Shown in pieces: positions 7,210 through 60,358 of a stretch of DNA of 64,000 nucleotides; position 1 is the first letter of the stretch, and every line of letters begins with the position of its first letter. The stretch lies in the IMG/VR virus record IMGVR_UViG_3300033547_000001, positions 1 through 64,000 of that record. The stretch is one strand, 5' to 3'. A program made the position numbers and the translations under genes. A model generated the notes under the pieces. The model saw only the letters and a program-made list of their open reading frames with translations. It made no database searches and was not told where the DNA came from. Source of the DNA: a virus (lineage: Duplodnaviria; Caudoviricetes).

Positions 7210-8328
7210 ATGACAAAGAAGCCACTCACCGGAACAATGCTCAGCCCCGCCGTAGCATCAGCCTATGCTTCGGCTGGTACGGCTGCCAAGACAGTCCAGG
7301 CGCCGATGATCAGGCAGGACCCGCAGAAACTGACCCTGCTGCCTGACGGGATCTACATCGGCCTATCGTCGGAGCGCTATCACGCTGACCCAGCGCTCGG
7401 ATCGTCCAACATCCGCGATCTGCGGAAGGGCGCCAACCTCTACTGGCACAAGTCGCGGATGAACCCGAACCGGCCGAAGGACAAGAAGACGCCGTCCAAG
7501 ATCCTCGGCACGGCGGTGCATCGCCTGCTGCTCGACGGGATGGACGCATACGAAGCCGACTTTGTGCGCGGCCCCTACGGGCCGGACGATGACCTGTCGC
7601 CCGGCGATAAGTCCTCGCTGACCAAAGCCGCAAAGGCAAAGCTGCTGCAGGGCCAGGAACTCCTATCGCAGGAGGACTTCGACTTCGTGCTCGGCTGCAA
7701 GGACGTCCTCGACCGCGATCCTGACCTGCAGGGCTGCCTCGACAATGGCCTGAGCGAGGTCTCGATCTTCTGGACCAGGAAGGACCTGGTCCGCTGCAAG
7801 GCCCGCCTGGACAAGTTGAAGATCCGCGGCATCGGCGATCTCAAGACGATCGCCAACGAGCGTGAGCGACCGCTCGACCAGGCCTGTTTGCTCGACATCG
7901 GGACCTATCGCTATGACATCCCGGTGGCGCACTACAGCGAAGGGCGCCGGCGAATGGCTGGATTCCTCGATCGAGGAAAAGTTTTCACTGAGGATGGTGA
8001 GGAACTGCTGGCTGCTGATTTTCCTCAGGGAAGGGAAGTTCTAGATTTCTTGTATAAGTGCGCGGCCGAGGACCACTTCGGCTTCCAGCTCGTCTTCATC
8101 CCTAAGCAGGGCGCCCCCGACGCATGGTCATGCACCATCACGCCGGTGATCGAGAACCCGATCTACGCCGAGGCCTGCGTCGACATCGAGGCGGCGATCG
8201 ACGTCTACAAGGCCGCGCTGGCCAAGTACGGGACGAGCCGGTGGCTCCCTGGTCATTCCGTCGAGGAGGTCACGCCGGATATGCTGCCGTTCGGGTTCGG
8301 CAAGCGGCGTCCGGCAGGAGTGCGTTAA
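7210..8328 (+). CDS. PD-(D/E)XK exonuclease, RecE/ExoVIII-like (DUF3799-like)
   Basis: YHADPALGSS, LGTAVH, EVSIFW, CKARLD, DLKT motifs. Confidence 0.85.
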   Translation: MTKKPLTGTMLSPAVASAYASAGTAAKTVQAPMIRQDPQKLTLLPDGIYIGLSSERYHADPALGSSNIRDLRKGANLYWHKSRMNPNRPKDKKTPSKILGTAVHRLLLDGMDAYEADFVRGPYGPDDDLSPGDKSSLTKAAKAKLLQGQELLSQEDFDFVLGCKDVLDRDPDLQGCLDNGLSEVSIFWTRKDLVRCKARLDKLKIRGIGDLKTIANERERPLDQACLLDIGTYRYDIPVAHYSEGRRRMAGFLDRGKVFTEDGEELLAADFPQGREVLDFLYKCAAEDHFGFQLVFIPKQGAPDAWSCTITPVIENPIYAEACVDIEAAIDVYKAALAKYGTSRWLPGHSVEEVTPDMLPFGFGKRRPAGVR

Positions 8329-18530: not shown

Positions 18531-18644
18531 AAGGCCCGACGTCGGGCCAGAAACGGGGTCTGGGCTCGTTATTCCGGAGTCCGCGCTACCACCGTAGCCA
18601 AAAAACGGAGATGATCTTCTTTGGTCGTCTCGGGGAAGGGTTCC

Positions 18645-19241
18645 ATGAACTGCCTAAAATGCCACAAAATAAAGCAATCGGTTGATTTCTACAAAAATTC
18701 CCGCACTTGCAAGGTCTGCACAAGAAACGCCAGCGCCGAGTGGCGCTCGAGGAATAAGACGAGAGATCGTGCTCGACGGCAACAATATTACGCAGATAAT
18801 TGCGACAGGATCTGTGCGAAATCGCTAGCACGCTACTATGCCAAAAAGGATGAAATCCTTCCGAAAATCAACAGACGAGCACTAGAACGCCGAACCGACG
18901 ATCCGATGGTGAAGCTTACACATCGCATCAGAGTTAGGATGTCGAAAGTGATCAAAGGCAAGGTTCCTGCCGATTGGCTGAGTATCCTCGGCTATCATCC
19001 GCGGCTTCTAGTCCCGCACCTAGAAGCCTTGTTCGAACCTTGGATGTCCTGGGGCAATTATGGCACAGAGTGGCATGTTGATCATAAGCGACCGGTTTCG
19101 TCGTTTAAACTTCCAGAGCAGCTGCGAGAATGCTGGGCACTGTCGAATTTGCAGCCTCTGCGTTCGATAGACAATCTGAAAAAGGGTGCTCGATGGTCAA
19201 AGAATTTGGACAATAAAAAAAGCCCCCTCGATTCCGCCTGA
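18645..19241 (+). CDS. HNH endonuclease
   Basis: CLKC/CKVC, MSWGNYG.EWHVDHKRP...NLQPL...NLKKG; lower GC. Confidence 0.8.
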   Translation: MNCLKCHKIKQSVDFYKNSRTCKVCTRNASAEWRSRNKTRDRARRQQYYADNCDRICAKSLARYYAKKDEILPKINRRALERRTDDPMVKLTHRIRVRMSKVIKGKVPADWLSILGYHPRLLVPHLEALFEPWMSWGNYGTEWHVDHKRPVSSFKLPEQLRECWALSNLQPLRSIDNLKKGARWSKNLDNKKSPLDSA

Positions 19242-19260
19242 GCGAAATCAAGGGGGCCTT
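19214..19260 (-). terminator. Intrinsic terminator at the convergence of the two arms
   Basis: GCCCCCT..GATT / AATC..AGGGGGC stem; U tract on the minus strand. Confidence 0.7.
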
Positions 19261-19267
19261 CTGAATT

Positions 19268-19343
19268 TGGAGCCTCAGGGATGGACTTGAACCATCGACC
19301 TCCGGTTTACGAAACCGGCGCTCTACCACTGAGCTACCGAGGC
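19268..19343 (-). tRNA. trnT: tRNA-Thr(CGT) with encoded CCA
   Basis: GCCTCGG-TA-GCTC AGTGGTA GAGC-G-CCGGT TTCGTAA ACCGG-AGGTC-GATGG TTCAAGT CCATC-C-CTGAGGC-T-CCA. Confidence 0.92.
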
Positions 19344-19433
19344 GAAGGTGGCGCCGCTCGTCAAACGGGCAGGGAAGACGAGCGGCACCAAGTCTAGGGA
19401 GGAAACGCCCAAGGAGGGCACCACGGCTTCGCG

Positions 19434-36002: not shown

Positions 36003-36063
36003 CCTGCCACCTCCGGCTTCGATGCAAGTGGATTACAGAAAACGCCGTCCTGGGTAAAGTGCC

Positions 36064-36495
36064 TCACGACGGCTGCGAGAACACGCGCGCCCACACTATT
36101 CCGAATTTGCGCGGCTGCAGGATCTTCTTCACGTTCGGCGCGGGCGAGTATTCCTTCAGGAACCCGTTGCTCCATGTCCACTTCGTACCGAGGCTCTTGA
36201 GCAGCATGTTGCCGTTCGCCGCGAACGTGTCTTGCTGCGAATCCTGCGCCTGCTTCCACGTATCGAACATGAAGCACGATGGCGAGTTGGCCTGCAGCGT
36301 GTAGACATACTTCACGGCGTTGAAGACGTAGCCGGCGCTGAGGTGTCCGTCGACGCCCATCAACTCCTCGCACAACGTCAGTGTATCGACGTCAGCGACG
36401 TCGTCCACGGAGAACTGCTGGAGCTGCTGCGGCTGGTTGAACACGCCCGGGATCGTGAGCGTGATGACTGCGTTGACCGCGGTGATCGTTGTCAT
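36064..36495 (-). CDS. Tail tube protein
   Basis: ITAVNAVITL, QLQQFSVDD, MGVDGHLSAG, LQANSPS; follows sheath. Confidence 0.8.
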   Translation of the reverse strand: MTTITAVNAVITLTIPGVFNQPQQLQQFSVDDVADVDTLTLCEELMGVDGHLSAGYVFNAVKYVYTLQANSPSCFMFDTWKQAQDSQQDTFAANGNMLLKSLGTKWTWSNGFLKEYSPAPNVKKILQPRKFGIVWARVFSQPS

Positions 36496-48300: not shown

Positions 48301-50874
48301 TTACGCGCTGCCGATGCGGTCGAGGTTCTTGGCGATGTTGGGAAGACGCTTGGCGAAGTCGGCCTTGCTGCCGGCGCCGCCGCTGCTATCCATCGCGATC
48401 GTGGTGTTGCGCTTGCCGCTGTCGGGGGACGACAGATTGTCGAACATGAACTTCAGCGCGTCGGCCTTCACGCCGGCGAGCGGCTTGGTGTCCTTGCCCG
48501 CTGCCTGGATGGCGTGGAGATAGACGCCCTCGACGCTGTCGAATGCCATGCTTGAGAGTTCGCCCACTCGGGGTCGGACGTGATCCTTGGCAGCGTAGAT
48601 CGCCTGCTGGAGCTCGCGCTCCTGCTTGATAGCTGCCTGCACCTTCTTGTCGGTCGCTGCGTCCATGGCCTTCTTGTCCTCCTTCTCAGCCTCATCCTTG
48701 GCCTTCTTGTCGCGCGCGCCGGCGCTGGGCTTCTCGTCCTTCGCCTTCTTGTCCTTGGCCTTCTTGTCTTTCGAGAATTCCAGCTTTTTCTTATCTTCGT
48801 CATCCGGATCGCCGTCTTCAGCGGTCTCCTCGACGTCCTCATCCTCGGCGGATTCGGACTCGTTGTCCTCGTCCTCTTCGTTCTTGTCCTCGTCCTCGGC
48901 CGTCTTCTCCTTGTCCTTCGGCGGCCATTCGTCTTCCGCCTTGGGCATTCCGCCTTCGATCATGTCGAGCACCGCGTCGAGGCCTGCCTTGATGCTGCCA
49001 TCCTGGGCGAACTTCGGCTGCAGTTTGCCCTTGACGAGCTCCCGCACGTAAGCGGCCAGGACCGGCCGCTTCGCCTTCCAATTGCTCGCGCGGATGTTGC
49101 GCAGTCCCTTCGTCAGATCGATGCTCGCGTCCATCGCAAGCATGGGCTGCAGGTGCGCCATCAGCGCGCCATAGGCGATGCTGGCGGTAGAGGACATCAG
49201 AACTCTTTTGGTCATGGTAAAAGCCTCCTTCGGGATGAGTGGGTTTTTGGAATCGCCTACAACTACGTCCGGACCAGCCCTACCGTCGGAAACCAGGGCG
49301 ACGTGATTTCCAACGATGTCTCGCATCACTCCGTCATAGCGAGTGCCGTTATAGGAGCCTGGAGTCATGTCGGCGCGGTAGCGGTACGCGCTCGATAGCT
49401 CTTTCTTCTTCTCGCTCTTAACCGCCTTGATGCCTTTGTCGGCCCAAATGACGAGGCTGTTCTTCAGGTAGGTCCCGTCGAACTCTGCGTCCGTTCCGGT
49501 CGAGCCGATCACGTGCTCGGGCTTGTGGTCCGCAGCACTAACCGGGACGTGCTCATCGAGCACCGGTTTGTTGTTGAACGTGCTGGCCGCCTTCTTGAGC
49601 TCATCCGGGTCCCGAAACAGGTAGTAAATCTTGTCGGCCGTGAGCCCCAGCGTCTTCCACTGTGGGATCTCGTCGCCGCGGTACGGGTTGACCGCGGCCT
49701 TGCTGATATTGCTGACCTCGACGTGCAGGTGGCCGTCGGGGCTCTCGGTCCGGTTCCCCTTCGCAGGCGCAGCATAGTCGAACGCCAGGCCGTGCCGGTC
49801 GATCATCAGGCCGAACGGCGCCCGGTCGAGCGCCAGCAGCTCGTCCATAGCGCCCATCCCGGGCTTCATGGGCGCGTGCGTCATGGCGGCGACGCCCGAA
49901 CCCCCACACGCCGAGCACATGTCACCGTGGACGTTCCCAGCCCCGCCGCAGGCCCCACAGAGGCCGTCCTGGGCGTGCTTGAGCTTCTTGGCGCTCCCGA
50001 CGATCGGCGGGAACCCGGAGTTGGCCGCGGTGGTAGCCTGGACCTGGTCCTGCGCGTGCCGAGGTTTCTTGCCGGTGCTCTTGATCCCGCGGATGCGAAA
50101 TGCGCCGTCCCCGTCGATGAAGAACTTCTTCTCGTGGTCTGAATCACCGGGGTCGACCACCACGTCGAATGAGTGCCCGATCGACGAGGTCTCCTGCAGG
50201 TGCGCCAGCAGGCGCTTGAGCTGGTTCTCGTCGTCGTCGAGGTCGATGACGATCTGCTCGTCCTTGGCGATCTCCTCGCCGCGCGCCCAGCCCGCGAAGT
50301 TCTTGTGCAGCGTCGCCCAGTCCTCTTCACTCATGTCGTCGGTGGCGCCGAGGTCCGTGCTCAGGCGCTCCTTGACCGCGGGGTGGATCGGCGACGGCAG
50401 TTCGTGCAGCCCGAACCAGCCGGCGCCGGTGTGCTCGTTGTTCAGCTTCGGCGAGAACTTCTCGGCGACCGGCTTCGCGAAGGTGTGGAACGTCTTGCCC
50501 GTGGGGGTCGACCGACGATCCATCAGCCGCTTCGGCCCCTGCGGCGAGGTGTTGCCGAGCTCCTCGGCGTTCTCCCGATCGGCCGCCTCCTCGGCGCTCT
50601 CGCCCGGATCCCCATTGCCGCCCGGGAGCGACCAGTGGCCCGCGAAGTTCTCCTCCTTGGCTGACCTGCGCAGCAGCAGGACGTGCCCGTCCGGGGCGAC
50701 GTGCACCGTGCCGGCGACTATAGCTCCCTTGGGCAGCACTCGCGCGTCAGGCATCTCGCCGTTTTCGTCGGCCGCGACGAACTCCTCGCCCACGGCCTTC
50801 GGGATCCCTAGGCGCGACTTTCCCTCCGCGGCGGCATACATCGCGCGCTTTTGCCGTGGTGTTTTGGCTGGCAT
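48301..50874 (-). CDS. Prohead protease/scaffold (DUF2213-like) with N-terminal Nudix and Zn-finger cargo domains
   Basis: Nudix box GGNGDPGESAEEAADRENAEELG; CGACGGAG..CSACGGSG; protease core ISKAAVNPY.G.EI, ELSSAYRY, NHVALV..GRAG; acidic scaffold tail. Confidence 0.85.
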   Translation of the reverse strand: MPAKTPRQKRAMYAAAEGKSRLGIPKAVGEEFVAADENGEMPDARVLPKGAIVAGTVHVAPDGHVLLLRRSAKEENFAGHWSLPGGNGDPGESAEEAADRENAEELGNTSPQGPKRLMDRRSTPTGKTFHTFAKPVAEKFSPKLNNEHTGAGWFGLHELPSPIHPAVKERLSTDLGATDDMSEEDWATLHKNFAGWARGEEIAKDEQIVIDLDDDENQLKRLLAHLQETSSIGHSFDVVVDPGDSDHEKKFFIDGDGAFRIRGIKSTGKKPRHAQDQVQATTAANSGFPPIVGSAKKLKHAQDGLCGACGGAGNVHGDMCSACGGSGVAAMTHAPMKPGMGAMDELLALDRAPFGLMIDRHGLAFDYAAPAKGNRTESPDGHLHVEVSNISKAAVNPYRGDEIPQWKTLGLTADKIYYLFRDPDELKKAASTFNNKPVLDEHVPVSAADHKPEHVIGSTGTDAEFDGTYLKNSLVIWADKGIKAVKSEKKKELSSAYRYRADMTPGSYNGTRYDGVMRDIVGNHVALVSDGRAGPDVVVGDSKNPLIPKEAFTMTKRVLMSSTASIAYGALMAHLQPMLAMDASIDLTKGLRNIRASNWKAKRPVLAAYVRELVKGKLQPKFAQDGSIKAGLDAVLDMIEGGMPKAEDEWPPKDKEKTAEDEDKNEEDEDNESESAEDEDVEETAEDGDPDDEDKKKLEFSKDKKAKDKKAKDEKPSAGARDKKAKDEAEKEDKKAMDAATDKKVQAAIKQERELQQAIYAAKDHVRPRVGELSSMAFDSVEGVYLHAIQAAGKDTKPLAGVKADALKFMFDNLSSPDSGKRNTTIAMDSSGGAGSKADFAKRLPNIAKNLDRIGSA

Positions 50875-50878
50875 GGTG

Positions 50879-51193
50879 TCAGCGCATCTCGCCGCTGGTG
50901 ATGAAACCATGCCAGAGGCCGCCGGCGCTCCCGTCGATCGACGGCATCACGGTCAGCGTCGCGAAATCCGCCGCTTCGATCCCGCCGGCGATCGACCACG
51001 CGATGCCGGGCTTGCAGCTCTGGACGTGGTCGGTGTCGAATAGCTCCCACTGGTCCCGAGTCGACGGCGAGGGGATGGCGAAGCAGCTCTGGCGCCACTT
51101 CGGGTCAGCGGGGCTCACGAAGGTGAAGCCGACGCGCCGGCCGTCCTTCATGATCCACTTCGGGTCGAGGTCGAGAAGCTTCATAAGGGCCAC
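50879..51193 (-). CDS. DUF6527-like protein (Cys-poor copy)
   Basis: W...G...TLTVMPSI...WHGFITSG. Confidence 0.55.
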   Translation of the reverse strand: MALMKLLDLDPKWIMKDGRRVGFTFVSPADPKWRQSCFAIPSPSTRDQWELFDTDHVQSCKPGIAWSIAGGIEAADFATLTVMPSIDGSAGGLWHGFITSGEMR

Positions 51194-51198
51194 CTCTC

Positions 51199-51535
51199 AA
51201 AAGAAAAAGGCCCCAGTTTCCTGAGGCCTTTCCTCGTCTGGCAGACTTTGTCGCCAGACCTTCATTGAGGGCATTCGCCCTCCTGAAAATGTACGCTCCC
51301 TCATTATCGCTCGCGAAGCGATGTCCCTGGAACGTTACTCGGCGGGACCGACGACCCAGGCTGCAGGCTCTGGTAGGGAGAATTCTATAGTTGGCGGATC
51401 CTGAGAAATCAATCGTTGGCGTCACGAACACCGAAGGCTACCCGCTTCAGGCAGGTCGACTGCCGATTTAACGACCACTCCGACCTCTGGATCCGGACCC
51501 TCTATGCCGTCTAGCCGGGCGTCCCCGGCCGCTCA
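51199..51535 (-). ncRNA. Unclassified highly structured RNA ending in an intrinsic terminator
   Basis: 337-nt gap between coupled genes; hand-folding gives a 5' hairpin, two multibranch domains, two hairpins and a GAAA-capped terminator with U tract. Confidence 0.6.
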
Positions 51536-51537
51536 AC

Positions 51538-51765
51538 TTATCCCTTTGGCTGTGGAATATCTTCTTCAGGAACCGCTTCTTCCTTGACCTCGAACGACGC
51601 GATTGCCGGGTGGAAGAGGTGAAACGAATATTCGCCGGACGGATTCGGCGATCCCTCATAATTGCCCTCGACGACGATGGTCTCCGACCTGTCGCCCTCG
51701 GCATCCACTTGCACGACTTTGGCGCGGTAGCGACCGTTGACATGGATCTTCACGGTGGTGGTCAT
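51538..51765 (-). CDS. Hypothetical small beta-rich protein
   Basis: AAGGGG RBS; ORF in late operon. Confidence 0.65.
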   Translation of the reverse strand: MTTTVKIHVNGRYRAKVVQVDAEGDRSETIVVEGNYEGSPNPSGEYSFHLFHPAIASFEVKEEAVPEEDIPQPKG

Positions 51766-51790
51766 GGAAAGATTCCCCTTGGGTTGAGAG

Positions 51791-51988
51791 CTACGCGTCG
51801 CCGCGCTTCAGCATCTCGGCTACTTGGCCCACAGTGAGGTCCTCGTCAAGGGGTCCCACGCAGTCGTCGCATGGCTTCTGCGCCTTGCGATACTTGTTGC
51901 GCGCACAGCCCTTGCCCTCGCCCCTGCACGCCCAAAGCCGAAACTCGCCGCTGGTGTGCTTCGCCAGGACCAAGCTGAGATCAGCCAT
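51791..51988 (-). CDS. Small Cys-rich protein
   Basis: TGATG overlap with GNAT; WAC...C...CDDC. Confidence 0.55.
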   Translation of the reverse strand: MADLSLVLAKHTSGEFRLWACRGEGKGCARNKYRKAQKPCDDCVGPLDEDLTVGQVAEMLKRGDA

Positions 51989-52422
51989 CACCCGACCTCG
52001 AACGTGACCGTGATGCAGGTCTCGCGCCCGCCGTGCTTCGCGGCGATCTCGCGCATCGCCGCATTCCGCGGATGCGTGCCGAGCATGATCCTCGGCGCCT
52101 TGATCTCCGCGGCCTTCTCGACCGCCGCGGCGAACAGCGCCGTGTATACGCCGCGCCCCCTGAACTCGGGGATGGTGTAGGCCTGCAGCAGGAACACGGT
52201 CTTGGTGTGCTCCAGGAAGTCGTAGGTCAGCACTCCGACCGGGATCTTCTCCTGGCCGTTCCGCGCGATCGCGATGAAGGCCTTGAAGTTCCACCCCATA
52301 TTCAGTACGCCGCCGGGCTCCCCGAGCCCGCGTTCGTCGACGTCGAGCCATCCCATCACCGAGAGCCGTGCCGCGGGCGTGCCGTTCAACCCGTCGACGT
52401 GCTGGATCTCGATGTTCGTCAT
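51988..52422 (-). CDS. GNAT-family acetyltransferase
   Basis: YTIPEFRGRGVYTALF acetyl-CoA motif A; N..M...K.G motif B. Confidence 0.8.
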   Translation of the reverse strand: MTNIEIQHVDGLNGTPAARLSVMGWLDVDERGLGEPGGVLNMGWNFKAFIAIARNGQEKIPVGVLTYDFLEHTKTVFLLQAYTIPEFRGRGVYTALFAAAVEKAAEIKAPRIMLGTHPRNAAMREIAAKHGGRETCITVTFEVG

Positions 52423-52634
52423 AGTTGGTCACTCAAGAATACGGCCAGGACCGTCTCGCCGATACGATCCACCCGGCAATATCCCTCGCTCGCCAGTCGC
52501 TCGATCATTCTCGAGTCGACAGAAGAGAATGCAGAATGGCTGCTGTAGAGGCGACCGTCTTCGTGCCGCATCAACTCGCCGTACTTCTTGAGGATAGCGA
52601 TCGCGTTTTTGTCCTGGCCGCTTAGCTTGCTCAC
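52419..52634 (-). CDS. Small hypothetical protein (winged-helix-like)
   Basis: GTGA/ATGA overlaps at both ends; fold is a guess. Confidence 0.5.
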   Translation of the reverse strand: MSKLSGQDKNAIAILKKYGELMRHEDGRLYSSHSAFSSVDSRMIERLASEGYCRVDRIGETVLAVFLSDQL

Positions 52635-52852
52635 GGCTGCTTCGGCCGCAGCACGATCTCGTAGCCGAGCGTCTCGGCTAACCTCGCGAGCGTGCGAAGC
52701 GTCGGGCTTCGCTTGCCGAGCTCGACGTCGATCAGGCTCGTTCTGCCGAGGCCGGAACGCCGTGACAACTCGTCGAGCGTGAAACCCCATGCCCTGCGAA
52801 CGCTGCGCAGCTCGGTTACGACTTCGTGCGTGCCTTGCTCTGGTAGGAACAT
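52631..52852 (-). CDS. XRE-family HTH protein
   Basis: LRSVRRAWGFTLDELSRRSGLGRTSLIDVELGKRSPTLRTL. Confidence 0.85.
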   Translation of the reverse strand: MFLPEQGTHEVVTELRSVRRAWGFTLDELSRRSGLGRTSLIDVELGKRSPTLRTLARLAETLGYEIVLRPKQP

Positions 52853-53178
52853 CAGGTCCTCGTTCTGGCGACCTCAGGCTCGTCCGTCTTAGCCACCGTC
52901 ACGCACCTACCACGCTCGATGTAACCGTGCCAGCACCTGCCGCAGTTGACCGAGGGGCTGAAGGTCGGCGCATCCCTGTTGCCGTCCCAGTCCCATTGCG
53001 CGCTACCGCCGTTCTTGCCCTGCGGATCCCTCGGCTGGCCGGTCTTGCCGGCGATGATCAGGTTGCCGCAGCGCCTATCGTGCATCGGGCAGTTGAAGCT
53101 GAACACCTCCTCCTTGCCCGGCTCCGCGTCCCTGTCGCCGACCTCGAGCAACTTGAAACGAACCTTCGCGTCGCTCAC
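52852..53178 (-). CDS. DUF6527-like protein
   Basis: FSFNCP..C, WDWDGNRDAPTFSPSV.C..CWHGYI..G. Confidence 0.7.
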   Translation of the reverse strand: MSDAKVRFKLLEVGDRDAEPGKEEVFSFNCPMHDRRCGNLIIAGKTGQPRDPQGKNGGSAQWDWDGNRDAPTFSPSVNCGRCWHGYIERGRCVTVAKTDEPEVARTRT

Positions 53179-53183
53179 TTACT

Positions 53184-53351
53184 CAGCTCCTTGGCGATCT
53201 GAGTGCAAGCTTCGCGCGCCCTTTTGGCGCGAGAATATGCCGCTCTCATCTCCTCGACGTCTGCGATCGCAGCGAGATGGGTGACCGCCTGCTTGAACGC
53301 CTCGTCGAACGCGTCGAGCGCGGTATCGAGTTCGGTGGGGCGATCGCTCAC
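53184..53351 (-). CDS. Small helical hypothetical protein
   Basis: Not in ORF track; GTGA overlap, 55 aa read by hand (MSDRPTELDTALDAF...). Confidence 0.5.
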
Positions 53352-53659
53352 GAGAAGTCCTCGCCCTTGTCGACTGGTATCGGCGGCATGGCCACGATGT
53401 CCGATCGGCCATGCCAGCTGTCCGCGCAGAACTGGATCATGCCGTCGGTGATGAAGTAGTGGCAGACCACCTCAACACCAACCACTTCGGCCCCCATGGC
53501 GACGAACGTCTGCTTGAAGCTCGGCGTGAACAGCGGCCGCGCGAAGTTGCCGTTGAACTGCCAGCTGTCAGGCAGCGGGTGCAGGCGCTCGCACGCCGGG
53601 CACCAGTGATGCCAGCCGCCAACTGAAGCGCGAACGATGAGCGGATCGGCCTGTTTCAT
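53348..53659 (-). CDS. DUF6527-like protein
   Basis: HWCPAC..LH, WQFNGN..RP.FTPS, CHYFITDG.IQFC.DSWH. Confidence 0.75.
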   Translation of the reverse strand: MKQADPLIVRASVGGWHHWCPACERLHPLPDSWQFNGNFARPLFTPSFKQTFVAMGAEVVGVEVVCHYFITDGMIQFCADSWHGRSDIVAMPPIPVDKGEDFS

Positions 53660-54318
53660 GACTTCTTTCTCGCCCATGTGGCAAGCTTGGCTTGTCGGAT
53701 ACGTTCGCAAGTTTCTGGCGATCGCTTCAATCCTCGGCCAGCAATTCCTATTTTTGCCCGGGTCTCTGCCGATAGCACTCTTTTAGGTCTGGCAGCAAGC
53801 GCCTCCGGCGAGAACTTAAATCCGGACTTAGCGGTGCTGATCTTCAACCGCACCGATGGATGCTCCATTGCGGACTTCGTCGCTGCACTTATCCTAGACC
53901 GCCTCTCAGGAGAGATGGGCTTTCCTCTCAACGCAGCCGATCTCTTTGCATTGGATGCTGGCGTTCGCACCAGAGCGCGACTGGCATCAGCTATCTTAAC
54001 CAAAGCTTCAGCACCATGGCGGTTTCCAAGCATCGGATTGAAGTCGCCTCCAAGACCGACGTTGTAGCCGAATCTTCGGTCAGTAGTTCGAAATGCAGCA
54101 ATCGCCTTAATTTCCAGTTCGTGGATGTAATCCATCGAACCGATGACAAGAGTTCGCATTCTAGCTTCGTTGTACTTAGCAATGGCTGCACAAATTGGCC
54201 GTTTTAATCTCTTCGCATCCGACAGATGGTCGCGCCATCTAACTTCCGCCGTTCGGCCTGTGATACCGAAATAACGCTTACCATTTGGAAATTCGATGAC
54301 GTAGAGCAGATAGGACAT
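53656..54318 (-). CDS. GIY-YIG homing endonuclease with NUMOD3-like repeats
   Basis: LLYVI...RYFGIT, LEIKAI, GYN..LGG; repeated S.ETR.KI motifs; lower GC. Confidence 0.85.
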   Translation of the reverse strand: MSYLLYVIEFPNGKRYFGITGRTAEVRWRDHLSDAKRLKRPICAAIAKYNEARMRTLVIGSMDYIHELEIKAIAAFRTTDRRFGYNVGLGGDFNPMLGNRHGAEALVKIADASRALVRTPASNAKRSAALRGKPISPERRSRISAATKSAMEHPSVRLKISTAKSGFKFSPEALAARPKRVLSAETRAKIGIAGRGLKRSPETCERIRQAKLATWARKKS

Positions 54319-54320
54319 TG

Positions 54321-55328
54321 CTAGCTGAAACCTTTGATTACCGAGATGCTGACGCACCTACAATTAATCAAAGTTCCTGGCCAGATCCACTTCTTTTCAT
54401 GTGGATCGAACCATCCTTTTTTCACGTCAAAAAGCTTCCCGTTGTTCGCGAGGTGGGTCGGCCTAGGCACCTTGCCGCCGCCGCTGTGCCGCCACTTCGC
54501 CTGCGTGATGCCGAGCTCGACCTGGCGCACACGGTGCATATTCGCGGAAGCCTTGTTGTTCTGATCTCTGGCGATTAGCGCCGCCCGCCGCTTCGTGATC
54601 GGATACCGCGCTTCAAGCTCCTTCGCCAGCGTCCCCAGGTCTCGCCCCGCCGAGACCGACCGCATCACGAGGCCCTCGATGTCCGAGAAATACTCGCTGG
54701 CGATCGACCGGATCAGACCGACGTTCTCAGCGGTGGTCGCCTCGACCACATCCCTCATCGCCGGCGTCATCTGGAACTTCACCGAGAAGCCGCCCTGGCG
54801 CAGGATCGACCGCATTGACTTGTCCGTGCGCTGCGATACCGCCTTGGCGAAGTAATTTGCCAACTTCGGCGCCGCGGCGTCGATGTTCGCCGTCCACCGG
54901 TCCGCCATCTGCCTCACGGCCTTCGACATCACGACCGCCGGCGAATGCCTCATGGCGATCTTGGCCACGTCCAGCGCTGCCTCGCGCGTCTTCCAGGTGC
55001 GCACGGCGCCGTCCGAGCGCCTCAGTACGATCCCGTCGACGTAGGCCCGCCATGTGCCGTTCTCCGTCAGCCTCGCGTCGGGCCCGCTCAGGCTCGGCTT
55101 TGGCGAGTATCGATCCGCTGGCGCATCGTCCATCGCCATCGCTGGCGGGTTGTTGCGATAGGCAGACTTCAGCCAATAGACGGTCGAGTCGTTCATCTCC
55201 TCGATCAGGCGCAGCAGCCGAGCCCTGTACTCGACCTGGATCCCGAGATTGGGGTGCAGCGGACGGAGCTTGATCTCCTTGCCGCGCGAAGGAAGCACTT
55301 CGGTAGCTTGGAAAGGAGATCGTGCCAT
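54321..55328 (-). CDS. Head morphogenesis protein (MuF/SPP1 gp7-like) with internal insertion
   Basis: RAALIARDQNNK, WRHSG, RPTH, PGTLINCRC. Confidence 0.88.
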   Translation of the reverse strand: MARSPFQATEVLPSRGKEIKLRPLHPNLGIQVEYRARLLRLIEEMNDSTVYWLKSAYRNNPPAMAMDDAPADRYSPKPSLSGPDARLTENGTWRAYVDGIVLRRSDGAVRTWKTREAALDVAKIAMRHSPAVVMSKAVRQMADRWTANIDAAAPKLANYFAKAVSQRTDKSMRSILRQGGFSVKFQMTPAMRDVVEATTAENVGLIRSIASEYFSDIEGLVMRSVSAGRDLGTLAKELEARYPITKRRAALIARDQNNKASANMHRVRQVELGITQAKWRHSGGGKVPRPTHLANNGKLFDVKKGWFDPHEKKWIWPGTLINCRCVSISVIKGFS

Positions 55329-55521
55329 GTACACCTGATTTCTCGATCTGGCGATAGAGCTTGATTAGATCCCTATAGATCTCGGCATCAATGTCGATCG
55401 AAACCATCGGTGCTATAGGATCACCGTATTCGGCGATAATTCGCTGTAGGTAACCGAGCCTTGGCCGGATGACCGATATCGACGCCGCGCCGGCGAGGAA
55501 AGACCGGCGCGTCATGTCCAT
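55329..55521 (-). CDS. Hypothetical protein with twin-arginine-like start; true end unclear
   Basis: MDMTRRSFLAGAAS; the frame continues without a stop to 54727, overlapping MuF. Only the non-overlapping part is listed. Confidence 0.35.
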
Positions 55522-56144: not shown

Positions 56145-59033
56145 TCACCCCTTGCTGCCGTAGCCGGATTCGCCCAAGATCTTGAGCATCTGTGCAGCAC
56201 CGGCTGGGGATGATGCGACGTTTTTTACCTCTTCAGGAACGGAGTTCCACGCGATTCCCCCGTTCTCCTTGTATTCGGGCTTCCATCCGCTCGACAGAGC
56301 CTTGGTTATGACGTTCTCGCGGTGCTTGTAGACCTCATCTTTTTGCTTTGCTGCCTCCTGCCGCTGGGCCGCTTCTTCCGCAGCACGAGCGGCTGACGAC
56401 ATATTCTTCCAGCGATCGAAATCTTTGCGATATTCGGAATGCTGCTTCGAAACATCGTCATGCTCGTTGTTGATGACCTGATCAACTTCTTCGAGCGCAG
56501 CCCGCAGTTCGTCTCGAAGATTTCCTATTTCCTCCCGCAGAGCTTCTTCGGCATCCACGATATCGCTCTCGACTTCTTCGGCGTCGATGTCCTCGTCCGA
56601 GATCCTATCGCCATCTTCATCCAACCCGTGAATGAGATGATGCAAATTATCGGATGTCGAATTTAGCTCTTCGAAGCGACCGGATATATCCTGCACAATG
56701 CGGCTGATCTCGCCAGATTGGATGTGCGATAGACCAAATTCTTCGAGACTTAGCTTCTTGAAAGAAGATCCTTCCGGCTTGTCCCCGGCCAAAGCATCCA
56801 GCTTGTTGGCAATATCAACGAGATTGTTTCGCACCTTGGCGACAACTGCGGGAGCTTTCTCGTATGCATATTCTTGAGCGTTCTGCTCCGCCTCGAACTC
56901 CATCCCCTCGTCTAAGTCCGCGCGATCCTCTGGAGTGACATCCCAGACATCGCTGATTACTCCGTTGAACTCGTCATTCAAATCTACAAGTTTGGAATGG
57001 AGCTTCTCGCTTACCTTTGCCGCCTTATCAAGTTTGAGCTCCTTGGCCGACTTCGAGAGCGATTGCGCCCCAGTGGATCCGAATTTTCCGTCCGGCGCGC
57101 GCGGGTGGTCGGATTCATTGAACTCATCCCACGCGGTATGAACGAAAGGGATGACGGCATCGTTGGCCCCGCCTCCGTCGTCTTCGCTCTCGCCACCGGC
57201 GCCGCCTTGCGCTTTGCCGCCCTTGACGACGAGGCCCTCTTCCTCTTCCTCAGCCAGGTCCGGGAGATGCTCAGGCGGCAGCCCGTTGTAGGGCGAATTT
57301 TCATCGGAGACGATAACGCTGCGGACTTCGCCCTGGCCGATCGCGCCGAGGTCGACGTAGATCGTATGCGTCTCGGCCTCGATCTTGCGGACCTCGGCCT
57401 GGCCCTTCTCGTCGAGGGACCACAGCGGCTCGAACTCGAATCCGATCGCGGGGTCAACCTCGCCATAAAGGTCGAGCTGAATGAAATTGATGATCGTCTG
57501 CAGCTTGTAGCGCCATAGCGACTCCTGCATCGCGTTGACGAAATCATAAAACACCCGCAACTCGCCTTCGCTCGAGGCGTTCAGGCCAGTCGGAGTGATG
57601 CCGAGGAGGACGATCAGAGGAAGTCCTGAGACGCTTGAAAGCTGCTCCTGCGACTGCGCCTGCAGCGCGTCGAGCGTTCCAAGAGGCGTCGAGACGTTGA
57701 AGAACTCCTCGGTCTCCTTGTCTAAGACCATCGAGCCCATGTTCTGCCGCGTCTCGGCGAACAACTCGATACGGTCGACGACCTCCTCGCCGCCTCCCTG
57801 CAGCAGGCTCTGGGCGTTGGTGTAGATCCCGCTGACCGAGAAGCTCTCGATCAGGTCGGTGACGGCCTGGCGCGTGCGAAGCCAGTTGTCGACGTACGGC
57901 TTCGCCATCTGCGACAGCGACAACCCACCAAAGGCGTAGGCTGGCTTGAGCAGGTCCGGAACCTCGCGGCCAACGAATGTCAGCAGGCGCGATCGGTGGA
58001 TCTGCTTCTGCATCGCGAACCAGACATCGGGACGATACCAATCGTCCGCCAACGGGTCGGTCGCGTTGTAGCGCACAGGGTAGCACCACACGGGCTCGAT
58101 GTGCTTCAGCGCCTTGAACGATCCCTTCTTGAACTTGCGCTTGCTGACGTCATTCGATCCGTCACCGAGGTCGGTGAGCAGCTCGGCCGGATCATCCCCG
58201 TCGCCGGTGTCGATGTAGAGGTGGCTCCTGCCCATCCAGCAGTCGTATTCGGCGACGTTCTTGAAGCGGCCGCGGACGTCGAGCTTCTTCATGCGCTCGT
58301 TGATCTTGCGCAGCTTGCGCTCACGCGCCTTCTGCTCCGGGCTCGCCTCCACCGGCTTGGGCTTCGGCCGCTGCTTCTGGAGCGCGGCCTCCTCGTCTTC
58401 CTCCTGCGGCGCGCGCTCGGCCGCGATCGATATCTTGCTGGTCGGCGCCTTGTCCTGGGCGACCTTCTTGCCGTCGTCGTCCTCGTCCGTGTCGTCCTCG
58501 CCCTCGCTGGCGATCGTGAGCCGGATCCACTTCCGGGTCATCTCGGTCGCGAGGCGCTCGCCCATCCTGCGATATTCGGGGCGCAGCGTGAGTTCGGACA
58601 GATAGGCATAACCGAGGAACGCCAAGCCTTCGGCAAACGCCGCGCCGAAGCCGCCCGACATGCTCATCGCCGAGCTGAATGAATCGTTTGCCCAACTGGC
58701 GAGGTCGCTGTCCATGGCCAGCGCCGGTTCCCTACCGGGCGGCAGGACGCCCGGTGGGGGGTTGTAGGCCTGGAACGGATTGACCGCAGTGATCTGCCCG
58801 AAGATCGTATCCCCGCCTCCGCGCTCCATGGCTTGGCGCATACGGCGCCCTCGGATCTTCGCCCGCACACTGGGGTTGATCTTGAGCGCTGTCTTCGGCG
58901 CTGGTTGAGCGGGCGCTGACGGCTCAGCTGGCTTGGCAGGCGCTGGCGTCGGCGCGTGGTTGATCACGCCCATCACCGACCTACGGATCAACTCCGAAGC
59001 CTCGGTTTGCTTCCTGTAGCGCGTCACGGTCAC
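56145..59033 (-). CDS. Portal protein (DUF1073-like) with C-terminal acidic extension
   Basis: RPEYRRM..EMTRKWI, IHRSRLL, GGLSLSQ, TPLGTLD..AQSQE, LLGITP.GLNAS.EGE; follows terminase. Confidence 0.88.
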   Translation of the reverse strand: MTVTRYRKQTEASELIRRSVMGVINHAPTPAPAKPAEPSAPAQPAPKTALKINPSVRAKIRGRRMRQAMERGGGDTIFGQITAVNPFQAYNPPPGVLPPGREPALAMDSDLASWANDSFSSAMSMSGGFGAAFAEGLAFLGYAYLSELTLRPEYRRMGERLATEMTRKWIRLTIASEGEDDTDEDDDGKKVAQDKAPTSKISIAAERAPQEEDEEAALQKQRPKPKPVEASPEQKARERKLRKINERMKKLDVRGRFKNVAEYDCWMGRSHLYIDTGDGDDPAELLTDLGDGSNDVSKRKFKKGSFKALKHIEPVWCYPVRYNATDPLADDWYRPDVWFAMQKQIHRSRLLTFVGREVPDLLKPAYAFGGLSLSQMAKPYVDNWLRTRQAVTDLIESFSVSGIYTNAQSLLQGGGEEVVDRIELFAETRQNMGSMVLDKETEEFFNVSTPLGTLDALQAQSQEQLSSVSGLPLIVLLGITPTGLNASSEGELRVFYDFVNAMQESLWRYKLQTIINFIQLDLYGEVDPAIGFEFEPLWSLDEKGQAEVRKIEAETHTIYVDLGAIGQGEVRSVIVSDENSPYNGLPPEHLPDLAEEEEEGLVVKGGKAQGGAGGESEDDGGGANDAVIPFVHTAWDEFNESDHPRAPDGKFGSTGAQSLSKSAKELKLDKAAKVSEKLHSKLVDLNDEFNGVISDVWDVTPEDRADLDEGMEFEAEQNAQEYAYEKAPAVVAKVRNNLVDIANKLDALAGDKPEGSSFKKLSLEEFGLSHIQSGEISRIVQDISGRFEELNSTSDNLHHLIHGLDEDGDRISDEDIDAEEVESDIVDAEEALREEIGNLRDELRAALEEVDQVINNEHDDVSKQHSEYRKDFDRWKNMSSAARAAEEAAQRQEAAKQKDEVYKHRENVITKALSSGWKPEYKENGGIAWNSVPEEVKNVASSPAGAAQMLKILGESGYGSKG

Positions 59034-60358
59034 GCCCGGCGCCCGCCCATGGATGCCACCTTCGCACGAATGTTCTTGCTGATCTTCATCGGCAGCCTCA
59101 CGTGTGTTCGATGGTAGGCCGCCAGTGCCAACGCCATGACGCAGTCGTCGTGGAATCCTTCCGGCGCCTCATAGCGGACACCGGTCCGGGTATAGACATA
59201 CTCGAAGCTTTCCAACTCGCGACGAATGTGACCCGGATGATCATGCGGAAGTACGCCGTCGGGCGCATCTGGGAACGAAACCTCGCCCGTATGGATCGCG
59301 ATCTGAAGTGCCTCCATCAGGATCTGCTTGGACTGCTGGCTGAAGATATAGCCCTCGACTCGCGCTCCTGGCTTCTTCTGCAGTCGTTCGACGACCACGT
59401 CGCCAACGCCCGTGCTGTCAGCGAGCGTCGGCGTCGTGCCGATCGACGCGTGGATAAGCGGGTATTGCGCCTCCCACCCGATCTGCATGCGCATGAACTT
59501 GCCGAGCCGGCCGTACTGGTCGAGGCCGCAGTCCACCGTCCAGTCCTGCTTTTTAGCGAAGTCCAGCCCGTGCACGATCACGGGCCCGGTCGTCATCGGC
59601 TGCACGCACGCGGCGATCGCCCTCAGGCCGAATGGGTTGCCCTGGTCGTCGCTCGGCTCGGCGAGGTACAGCTCCTTGAACACCGCCTCGGGGAGAACCT
59701 TGCGAGCGTCCTCGACCTCATCGGCCTCCAGGACGTGCGCAGCAATCGCGTCGATCGCCGTGATCTTGTGGTAACCGAAGTTGGCGTCGTCGCCCTTCTC
59801 GGCCTTCCTGGCGAGCTGGTAGAACCAGTTGCGGCGCCCCTTGACGTTGCCGATGATCCTGATCGGGCCGCGGGTGGCCGTCAGCGTCGACCGGACAGCG
59901 AACCAGGAATCCTCCTTCGTGCGCGAGGCCTCGTCCATTACCGCCGCATAGACGTCCTCGCCGTAGAGCGAATCCGGCTTGTCGGCCGACTTGAACCAAA
60001 GCACCGCGCCGTTGATCAGCGTGATGGTCTTGAGCGTCTGGTTCTCGGTCCGAAGATCGTGCGGGATCGCCCGCAATGCCCGTCGAAAGGCGATGTCTGC
60101 TTGCCCGCTTACTGGCGCTATCCACCAATAGTTCCATCCCTCCTGACCATGCAGAGCCTGTTCAAAAAACCAGACAATACATGCACTTGTCTTTCCCGCC
60201 TTAGTGGACGCCTCGATCAGTGAATAACGCCGCGAGTCGAAGATCGCGTGCAGCTGCTTCGGATAGAGGTAGGGCCGCTCGTAGTCGAGGATGTACTCCT
60301 CGAGGTCCGCGACCGCGCCTATCTTGCCGGTGCCCTCCTGGGCCTCGTTGATCGCCAC
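59030..60358 (-). CDS. terL: Terminase large subunit
   Basis: Walker A ASTKAGKT, Walker B AVMDEA, nuclease GLDFAK..D and HDDCVMAL. Confidence 0.92.
   Translation of the reverse strand: MAINEAQEGTGKIGAVADLEEYILDYERPYLYPKQLHAIFDSRRYSLIEASTKAGKTSACIVWFFEQALHGQEGWNYWWIAPVSGQADIAFRRALRAIPHDLRTENQTLKTITLINGAVLWFKSADKPDSLYGEDVYAAVMDEASRTKEDSWFAVRSTLTATRGPIRIIGNVKGRRNWFYQLARKAEKGDDANFGYHKITAIDAIAAHVLEADEVEDARKVLPEAVFKELYLAEPSDDQGNPFGLRAIAACVQPMTTGPVIVHGLDFAKKQDWTVDCGLDQYGRLGKFMRMQIGWEAQYPLIHASIGTTPTLADSTGVGDVVVERLQKKPGARVEGYIFSQQSKQILMEALQIAIHTGEVSFPDAPDGVLPHDHPGHIRRELESFEYVYTRTGVRYEAPEGFHDDCVMALALAAYHRTHVRLPMKISKNIRAKVASMGGRRA

Follow-up and report, generated by a model that had tools for sequence, protein, structure and literature searches.

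A sharply bounded, conserved and strand-specifically foldable motif of about 125 nt, followed by a terminator, in the late operon of soil phages

The window analysed here comprises 64,000 nt of a viral contig 74 kb in length, which derives from samples of rhizosphere and soil; its host, inferred from protein matches, is probably Bradyrhizobium-like. The minus strand carries a late operon in which the terminase, portal and MuF genes are followed by an accessory island, a gap of 353 nt, a DUF6527 gene, a protease/scaffold gene and the capsid genes. What does this gap contain? An earlier reading, made from the sequence only, had proposed that it encodes a single structured RNA of about 340 nt, and had offered three options for its role: a put-like cis antiterminator or attenuator, a prohead-associated RNA, or the RNA partner of the adjacent GNAT/HTH/DUF6527 cassette.

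All genes flanking the gap lie on the minus strand. The large terminase (59030-60358), the portal (56145-59033) and MuF (54321-55334) precede the island (51185-54320), which contains a GIY-YIG homing endonuclease, two DUF6527-like genes, an XRE HTH gene, a GNAT gene, a 65-aa CxxC ORF and a 75-aa ORF. The island is lower in G+C than the phage, its endonuclease gene (near 51% G+C) has no codon-position bias, and it is absent from other MuF-protease phages, in which the MuF and protease genes lie within 1 kb of each other; it resembles an accessory-cargo hotspot seeded by homing endonucleases. The 75-aa ORF (51538..51765), which borders the gap on its 5' side, belongs to a family widespread in Bradyrhizobium phages and has about 190 homologues. 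On the 3' side lies the third DUF6527 gene (50879-51184), which overlaps the gene for the NUDIX-DUF2213 prohead protease/scaffold (48301-50910), with the capsid genes next.

Two observations on these neighbours are recorded in their own right. The head module contains three divergent DUF6527 paralogues (50879-51184, 52852-53178 and 53348-53710, minus strand; Pfam PF20137). DUF6527/BubE has recently been shown to be a Ser-His protease which removes ubiquitin-like conjugates in bacterial Bub operons (bioRxiv 10.1101/2024.11.21.623953), and the phage copies could serve in counter-defence against ubiquitin-like tagging of virion proteins. What appeared to be a second gap is occupied by the previously unannotated 65-aa ORF (51791-51987, minus strand; MADLSLVLAKH..., with three Cys and one CxxC), which starts at the GNAT stop codon in a TGATG overlap.

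The gap extends on the minus strand over 51185-51537, from the stop codon of the 75-aa ORF to the ATG of the DUF6527 gene (51184), and it is non-coding, as the sequence-only reading had described it. Stop codons interrupt all three minus-strand frames, and the GC content by codon position is flat (0.52/0.59/0.55), compared with a GC3 of about 0.9 in the neighbouring genes. No stop-free piece of the gap matched Pfam or PHROG, and a tblastn test for a decayed gene against the neighbours' proteins gave no match. ORF108 (51105-51431), which had been named as a conserved protein that might argue against an RNA, is not one; it had zero homologues among 5.8 billion proteins. A protein-coding gene or pseudogene was therefore rejected, on the stops in all frames, the flat codon-position GC and the lack of any Pfam, PHROG or protein homologue.

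The same reading had called the gap almost fully pairable. Folded as a whole, the gap does reach a minimum free energy (MFE) of -155 kcal/mol (z -4.27 versus shuffles), and its GC-corrected MFE, 3.3 SD under that of the phage as a whole, puts it in the top three of 531 windows. When the gap was split, however, the sole significant fold signal came from its 3' 94 nt (two perfect hairpins and a canonical terminator; z -6.4). The 5' 250 nt gave a z of only -1.2, with 20 of 200 shuffles folding equally well, and the domains within it gave z -0.7 to -1.8; the pairability is therefore largely the chance behaviour of a 58% G+C sequence, and shuffles of the same composition reproduce it. Two of the proposed domains did not hold up. 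The long helix GGAUCC-AGAGGUCGG/UUGAUUUCU-GGAUCC belongs to a domain with z -1.7 to -1.8, and its 3' strand (51412-51395) falls outside the conserved core described below and has no counterpart in the homologues; the second multibranch domain gave z -0.7 and is not conserved. Neither internal repeats nor motifs common to other intergenic regions of the phage were found in the gap beyond chance.

The structured 3' end consists of two stable hairpins (51236..51288; z -5.6, pairing probability 0.9-1.0), of which the first is UUUCA.GAGGGC-GAAU-GCCCUC..UGAAG and the second GUCUGGCGAC-AAA-GUCUGCCAGAC, followed by an intrinsic terminator (51197..51235; z -4.4) with a G+C-rich stem of 8-11 bp, a GAAA loop and a U5CU4 tail. 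Here the earlier reading was right: the terminator (GGCCUCAG-GAAA-CUGGGGCC plus U5CU4, 51231-51197) is canonical, and it lies directly 5' of the RBS (GAGAGG) and ATG of the DUF6527 gene (51182..51196). A simple scanner missed it, probably because the stem runs into the U tract. Upstream of the hairpins, at 51291..51414, runs a linker that shows no conservation and whose fold is equalled by shuffled sequence. A weak promoter-like TTGATT-N17-TATAGA(AT) within it, at 51412-51382, lacks significance, and promoter scans returned only weak 8-9/12 matches, in about the number expected by chance.

Conservation is confined to the opposite end of the gap. L131, a JGI metagenome contig, was found through the 75-aa ORF, past whose stop codon the similarity continues for about 125 nt (blastn and nhmmer, E 3e-16); G792, a complete 71.6-kb IMG/VR phage, was then identified in IMG/VR by a conserved 19-mer. 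The core so defined occupies 51415-51537, is about 125 nt long and starts one base past the TAA stop of the 75-aa ORF. It contains two conserved blocks, block 1 at 51532-51489 (44 nt) and block 2 at 51451-51415 (37 nt; CUGAAGCGGGUAGCCUUCGGUGUUCGUGACGCCAACG), in which the window differs from L131 at 3 of 81 positions and from G792 at 5 of 81. The adjoining 75-aa ORF is 76.6% identical in nucleotides between the window and L131, and the chance of three or fewer differences in 81 nt at this rate of divergence is about 1e-6. The portals of the window phage and G792 share 35% amino-acid identity. Beyond block 2, sequence identity falls to 51%. The conserved stretch is bounded on either side by a strand of P0, the helix which closes the predicted fold. 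Of the RNA originally proposed, what remains is thus the 125 nt or so at the 5' end, which are conserved and RNA-like; the gap is not a single structured RNA of about 340 nt, and the fold of the core differs from the one suggested.

Each of the three core copies (97-125 nt), when folded alone, yielded the same MFE architecture, a three-way junction of P0, P1 and P2 with a variable P3. P0 is a 7-bp helix, GUUGGCG/CGCCAAC, joining the first and last conserved bases; its 5' strand in the window (GUUG(A)GCG, 51530..51537), with a bulged A present in this copy only, pairs with CGCCAAC at 51421-51415. P1 (GCCGGG-GACG-CCCGGC, 51514..51529) is a 6-bp hairpin, invariant in all three phages and predicted to stack on P0. 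P2, a helix of 13-17 bp with 4-5 G.U pairs, joins the end of block 1 (ACGGCAUAGAGGGUCCG, 51494..51510) with block 2 (51424..51444), and is the conserved pairing that takes the place of the proposed GGAUCC helix. P3 (51445..51493) is an apical hairpin in every copy, although its inserts (about 39 nt in the window, 35 nt in L131 and 12 nt in G792) cannot be aligned. A segment unrelated in sequence and length, yet always a hairpin, is not expected from the recent transfer of one piece of DNA.

The predicted fold depends on the strand. The sense MFEs of the three copies were -55, -57 and -47 kcal/mol, against -36, -39 and -32 kcal/mol for the antisense, in which P2 was lost; since P2 holds 4-5 G.U pairs, it forms on the sense strand only. 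In these models the core structure is a property of the sense transcript. Standard pairs made up 95.9% of the core pair cells, versus 29-46% when the partners were slid, and the fold was only modestly better than that of shuffles (z -1.8 to -2.0 per copy). Among the paired positions, three changes were one-sided and compatible with pairing, one pair was broken, and none had changed on both sides. With three near-identical members, covariation in the core helices cannot be shown, and the motif is a well-defined candidate rather than a demonstrated RNA. The helices are conserved in sequence and not in pairing alone, which would equally fit a DNA site or a protein-binding sequence.

The setting of the core varies among its carriers. 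L131 and G792 carry it between terminase and portal, with no DUF6527 gene adjoining. L131, like the window, has the core 3' of a 75-aa ORF homologue; in G792 the gene 5' of it is a 114-aa ORF unrelated to that family, and similarity to the window starts about 5 nt before P0. Given these differing upstream genes and this boundary, the module has no conserved promoter, and it is most simply read as part of a polycistronic late RNA. At most homologues of the 75-aa ORF, genes follow directly. L132, a syntenic relative (MuF, endonuclease, 75-aa ORF, 59-aa ORF, NUDIX-protease), lacks both the element and DUF6527, which indicates that the core is accessory and dispensable for the head module.

Apart from L131 and G792, the two other soil phages that carry it, the motif was absent from Rfam and from every collection searched. 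Searches of GenBank phages (blastn) and of plasmids did not find it; 401 genomes each of the Bradyrhizobium family, order and genus gave only chance matches of 25-35 nt to the G+C-rich P1; and scans of IMG/VR with the conserved blocks returned G792 only. Pattern scans of IMG/VR and the metagenome collection with the P3 sequence, later seen to be non-conserved, gave no further members, and a covariance model of the three copies (R1), which scores them at 124-150 bits, detected no fourth over 85 loci (818 kb). At 80 DUF2213 protease loci (59-71% identity) there was no core match and no true non-coding gap upstream. Nor was there a gap at any of the DUF6527 loci inspected (15 in IMG/VR, 3 in genomes and 3 on contigs); DUF6527 homologues, at most 72% identical, have many different and unrelated neighbourhoods, and in every case the gene is closely coupled to the one upstream of it. 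The suggested partnership with the GNAT/HTH/DUF6527 cassette was abandoned on these data, more than 15 DUF6527 loci and L132 being without the element, and the other two carriers without an adjoining DUF6527 gene.

No known RNA family accounts for the gap, in agreement with the sequence-only reading. In the 64-kb window, the only gathering-level match to Rfam 15 was a tRNA-Thr at 19.3 kb, and a permissive scan of the gap and both homologous leaders produced only sub-threshold, terminator-like or chance matches. Two of these, ctRNA_p42d (RF00489; 29.9 bits, gathering 50) and BjrC68 (RF02353; 25.6 bits, gathering 39), fell over the terminator region. BjrC68 has a single conserved locus in each Bradyrhizobiaceae genome. 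Across 61 Bradyrhizobium-family genomes, its true members scored 40-102 bits and several unrelated sites per genome 25-37 bits; membership in BjrC68 was rejected, the score of the gap being below 39 bits and within this background range. What the 3' 75 nt of the gap (51270-51198) share with both of these alphaproteobacterial sRNA families is a hairpin, a GNRA-capped terminator and a UUUCUUUU tail, and the match is a generic hairpin-plus-terminator resemblance. A group I or II intron was likewise rejected (no Rfam match, and flanking ORFs that are independent genes with their own homologues and start codons), as was a ToxI-like type III toxin-antitoxin RNA, for which the gap has no repeat family and the downstream gene is DUF6527 protease-like, not of ToxN type.

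A second feature common to the carriers lies 3' of the core. In all three phages, a G+C-rich hairpin with a U-rich tail is found 60-180 nt downstream, before the next head gene. In L131 and G792 this hairpin is GGCCCCGG...CCGGGGCC-GUUGCUUUUGG, and it is followed by a conserved spacer of about 60 nt, a small 'MAFINID' gene and the portal gene; both hairpins are less canonical than that of the window, with long loops and an interrupted U tract, and were not called by the simple scanner. The window terminator is not homologous to them, so that core and terminator have stayed together while modules were exchanged. The hairpin and spacer of L131 and G792 also stand before the 'MAFINID' gene on two further, short contigs, and one of these starts at the point at which a core would end; the contigs carrying the 'MAFINID' protein are too short to show the core. 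No homologue of this protein was found in the window.

The 'MAFINID' leader is of some interest by itself. Situated just 5' of the portal, the leader of this small gene (M(A/S/G)FINIDAPGN...) is conserved in several soil phages (L137 6261-6364, L131 2886-2985, L141 55-154 and L143 50-148), and consists of the hairpin GGCCCCGG..CCGGGGCC GUUGCUUUUGG and an A+T-rich spacer of about 60 nt, which contains nested palindromes (TTGATTGCGTTTTCAAACTTGAAATCAA) and may function as a late promoter or operator.

In the window, only 16 nt separate the U tract from the DUF6527 ATG, and the DUF6527 and protease genes overlap; this leaves no room for a promoter, and expression of the capsid genes needs read-through of the terminator. 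No antiterminator hairpin competing with the terminator was found: when the 3' arm was withheld, the 5' arm had no strong upstream partner. The stretch is present in five metatranscriptome runs. Contigs of four RNA libraries, from different rhizosphere and soil studies, cover 4 kb (49500-53500) evenly, at low depth and with 100% identity; they span the terminator but may stem from carried-over DNA. These contigs exhibited no variants, transcript ends, enrichment or depth excess over the flanks. Their origins also indicate that the window phage is widespread in the rhizosphere and soil samples represented by the four libraries.

How is the core to be explained? It is probably a real, selected element that acts at the level of RNA. 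Its blocks are 94-96% identical between phages whose portals are 35% identical, and this marks an interaction with a highly conserved partner, for example RNA polymerase, the ribosome, an RNase or a packaging protein, whatever the mechanism.

For that mechanism we tentatively favour a put-like role, in which the core would be a cis-acting element of the nascent RNA that governs read-through of the terminator. The core would be transcribed within the late (head) polycistronic mRNA by polymerases arriving from upstream; once folded, the nascent core, either by itself or together with a factor from phage or host, would act in cis on the RNA polymerase transcribing it; and polymerases that had passed it would then read through this terminator and subsequent ones to reach the essential structural genes. 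Such logic would be that of HK022 put and of lambda nut and qut, a loading site and then a filter terminator. We reasoned that a conserved nascent structure followed by a filter terminator before essential genes is a known antitermination design, which makes a read-through element the most likely reading; because there is no competing antiterminator pairing and the linker is variable and not conserved, it would act at a distance and not as a riboswitch-like switch. Some considerations count on the other side. A terminator that always lies 3' of its own antiterminator makes sense only with a further regulator, and the spacer after the terminator in G792 and L131 could hold a promoter, which would remove the need for read-through there. 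Pfam annotation of the early-region genes detected no antiterminator or integrase.

HK022 put RNAs are nascent RNAs of about 70 nt with two stems, which lie before terminators and act over more than 10 kb (PMC9378689). Like putL and putR, the present element would be a structured nascent RNA with two stem-loops ahead of an intrinsic terminator that bars downstream phage genes, with a variable distance to the terminator tolerated; in the predicted folds, all three phages have two stem-loops (P1 and P2/P3) and a downstream terminator-like hairpin. Of the three options offered at the outset, the put-like antiterminator fits the layout best. The differences are considerable. Put is V-shaped, with no closing helix, whereas the core (97-125 nt) is closed by P0; put occurs twice per genome, just 3' of the early promoters of lambdoid coliphages, whereas the core is single-copy and lies in the late (head) operon of soil phages that probably infect Bradyrhizobium-like hosts; and the core has no known sequence relation to put.

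A bolder form of the favoured reading, which we regard as rather unlikely, is that the core, in soil phages whose hosts are Bradyrhizobium-like, represents a novel class of RNA for processive antitermination, which would load onto the RNA polymerase of the host midway along the late operon and so license transcription of a structural block of about 30 kb. If this were true, a put-like mechanism would exist with an unrelated fold, in late and not early transcription, and beyond the lambdoid phages of enterobacteria. Most of what is known in detail of phage elongation control that is RNA-only or RNA-centred comes from HK022 put, which suppresses termination without accessory factors by binding the beta' zinc-binding domain of RNA polymerase; should read-through control by the core be real, a second, unrelated motif in the late operons of soil phages would show that the strategy is more general, and would provide a compact read-through module for alphaproteobacteria.

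The leaders of lambdoid late operons offer another comparison. Like the lambda pR'-tR' leader (6S RNA) and StxS, the present locus is a short non-coding region with a strong terminator right before late genes, whose read-through needs antitermination. Those leaders have a dedicated late promoter with a Q-binding site, in contrast to the present element, which lies mid-operon after the packaging genes with no conserved promoter in the module. In Stx phages, the terminated late-leader product, StxS, is a regulatory sRNA (PMC7547250), and by this precedent control of read-through and a trans-acting RNA can both hold at once.

A discrete trans-acting RNA is the main alternative, although we consider it doubtful. 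It would comprise the core and its tail (about 230-340 nt), end at the terminator, and acquire its 5' end by processing of the late mRNA or from a promoter inside the preceding ORF; it would bind a host or phage protein and could include a prohead or packaging RNA. The terminator-like hairpin that always follows the core is what such an RNA would require, sequence conservation as high as this would suit an RNA recognised by a conserved partner, and a promoter serving the downstream genes could reside in the conserved post-terminator spacer of G792, L131, L141 and L143. The window, however, has no space for such a promoter between terminator and ATG, and no conserved promoter lies upstream of the core; the absence of a depth excess over the flanks in the four RNA libraries, which is weak evidence as it comes from contigs only, points the same way, as does the lack of an Rfam match.

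The packaging variant of this alternative deserves separate mention. As a closed three-way junction of about 100-125 nt with paired 5' and 3' ends, the core is similar to domain I of the phi29 pRNA. Both RNAs are three-way junctions of about 120 nt, and the phage-encoded core lies beside packaging genes in two of its three carriers (between terminase and portal in G792 and L131). The pRNA, however, has its own promoter and an intermolecular loop complementarity, neither of which was seen in the core, and it is known only in phi29-like podoviruses, whereas the carriers of the core are large contractile-tail phages with a classical terminase. Rfam should include a model of phi29-type pRNA, and none matched; by inspection, P3 has no conserved complement to the loop of P1 (GACG), so P1 and P3 have no conserved loop-loop complementarity. 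A phi29-type pRNA was rejected on these grounds.

It is improbable that the core serves in mRNA processing or stability, with P2 either cleaved as an RNase III-type site or acting protectively, so that the upstream (terminase or accessory) and downstream (structural) messages decay independently, and with the 3' hairpins and terminator protecting the upstream 3' end. A helix of 13-17 bp right after a stop codon within a polycistronic operon, and three very stable tandem 3' hairpins (z -6.4), are in keeping with this; RNase III sites, however, seldom need 94-96% identity across phages as divergent as these, and P0 and P1 would be left without explanation.

We assign a similarly small chance to a site that acts as DNA, bound by a DNA-binding protein, terminase, recombinase or homing endonuclease, or to a small mobile or selfish relic, with a fold of the RNA that would in either case be incidental. 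Sequence conservation extends to both strands of the helices, with no compensatory changes; the module moves between contexts with sharp recombination boundaries; and the window and L132 each have homing endonuclease genes close by. Such a site would not account for a fold that is strand-specific and dependent on G.U pairs, for conserved boundaries that coincide with the closing helix, or for a variable insert that is always a hairpin; the core is also single-copy in each phage, and searches of 1,200 genomes of the host clade and of the rest of IMG/VR did not find it.

An attenuator responsive to a ligand or protein, in which the core would be a sensor deciding whether the terminator forms, is very unlikely: a conserved structured domain, a terminator and a gene are the layout of a transcriptional riboswitch, but the terminator arm has no alternative pairing partner, the linker of 60-180 nt is not conserved and the terminators are non-homologous, for which reasons a riboswitch was rejected. 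Equally hard to credit is that the gap has no function and is a recombination spacer at the edge of the accessory island, with the terminator as an insulator and the similarity due to a recently exchanged fragment; the absence of the island from other MuF-protease phages, the G+C of the gap, lower than that of the phage, and a gap that is for the most part not conserved and folded no better than chance are in keeping with it, but the retention of two blocks at 94-96% identity while the interblock segment and the flanks were replaced is hard to obtain without selection.

Several other sites in the phage emerged from the same scans. On the minus strand, 36034-36087 (GCCGUC..GACGGC plus UUUUCUG, -20 kcal/mol) is terminator-like, and it is the only other such site in the 45-kb late cluster that is not obviously intragenic, which bears on the need for processive antitermination. 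The second most over-structured 356-nt window of the phage lies at about 7561-7916 (minus strand; -3.4 SD after G+C correction). A region of about 900 nt at 18531-19433, which contains no high-GC3 ORF in a crude gene map, encloses the tRNA-Thr(CGU) (19268-19343) and folds more strongly than the gap (-3.7 SD); right after the tRNA, at 19213-19266, it has an 18-bp hairpin with a U7 tail (-33 kcal/mol), and it may hold further non-coding RNAs.
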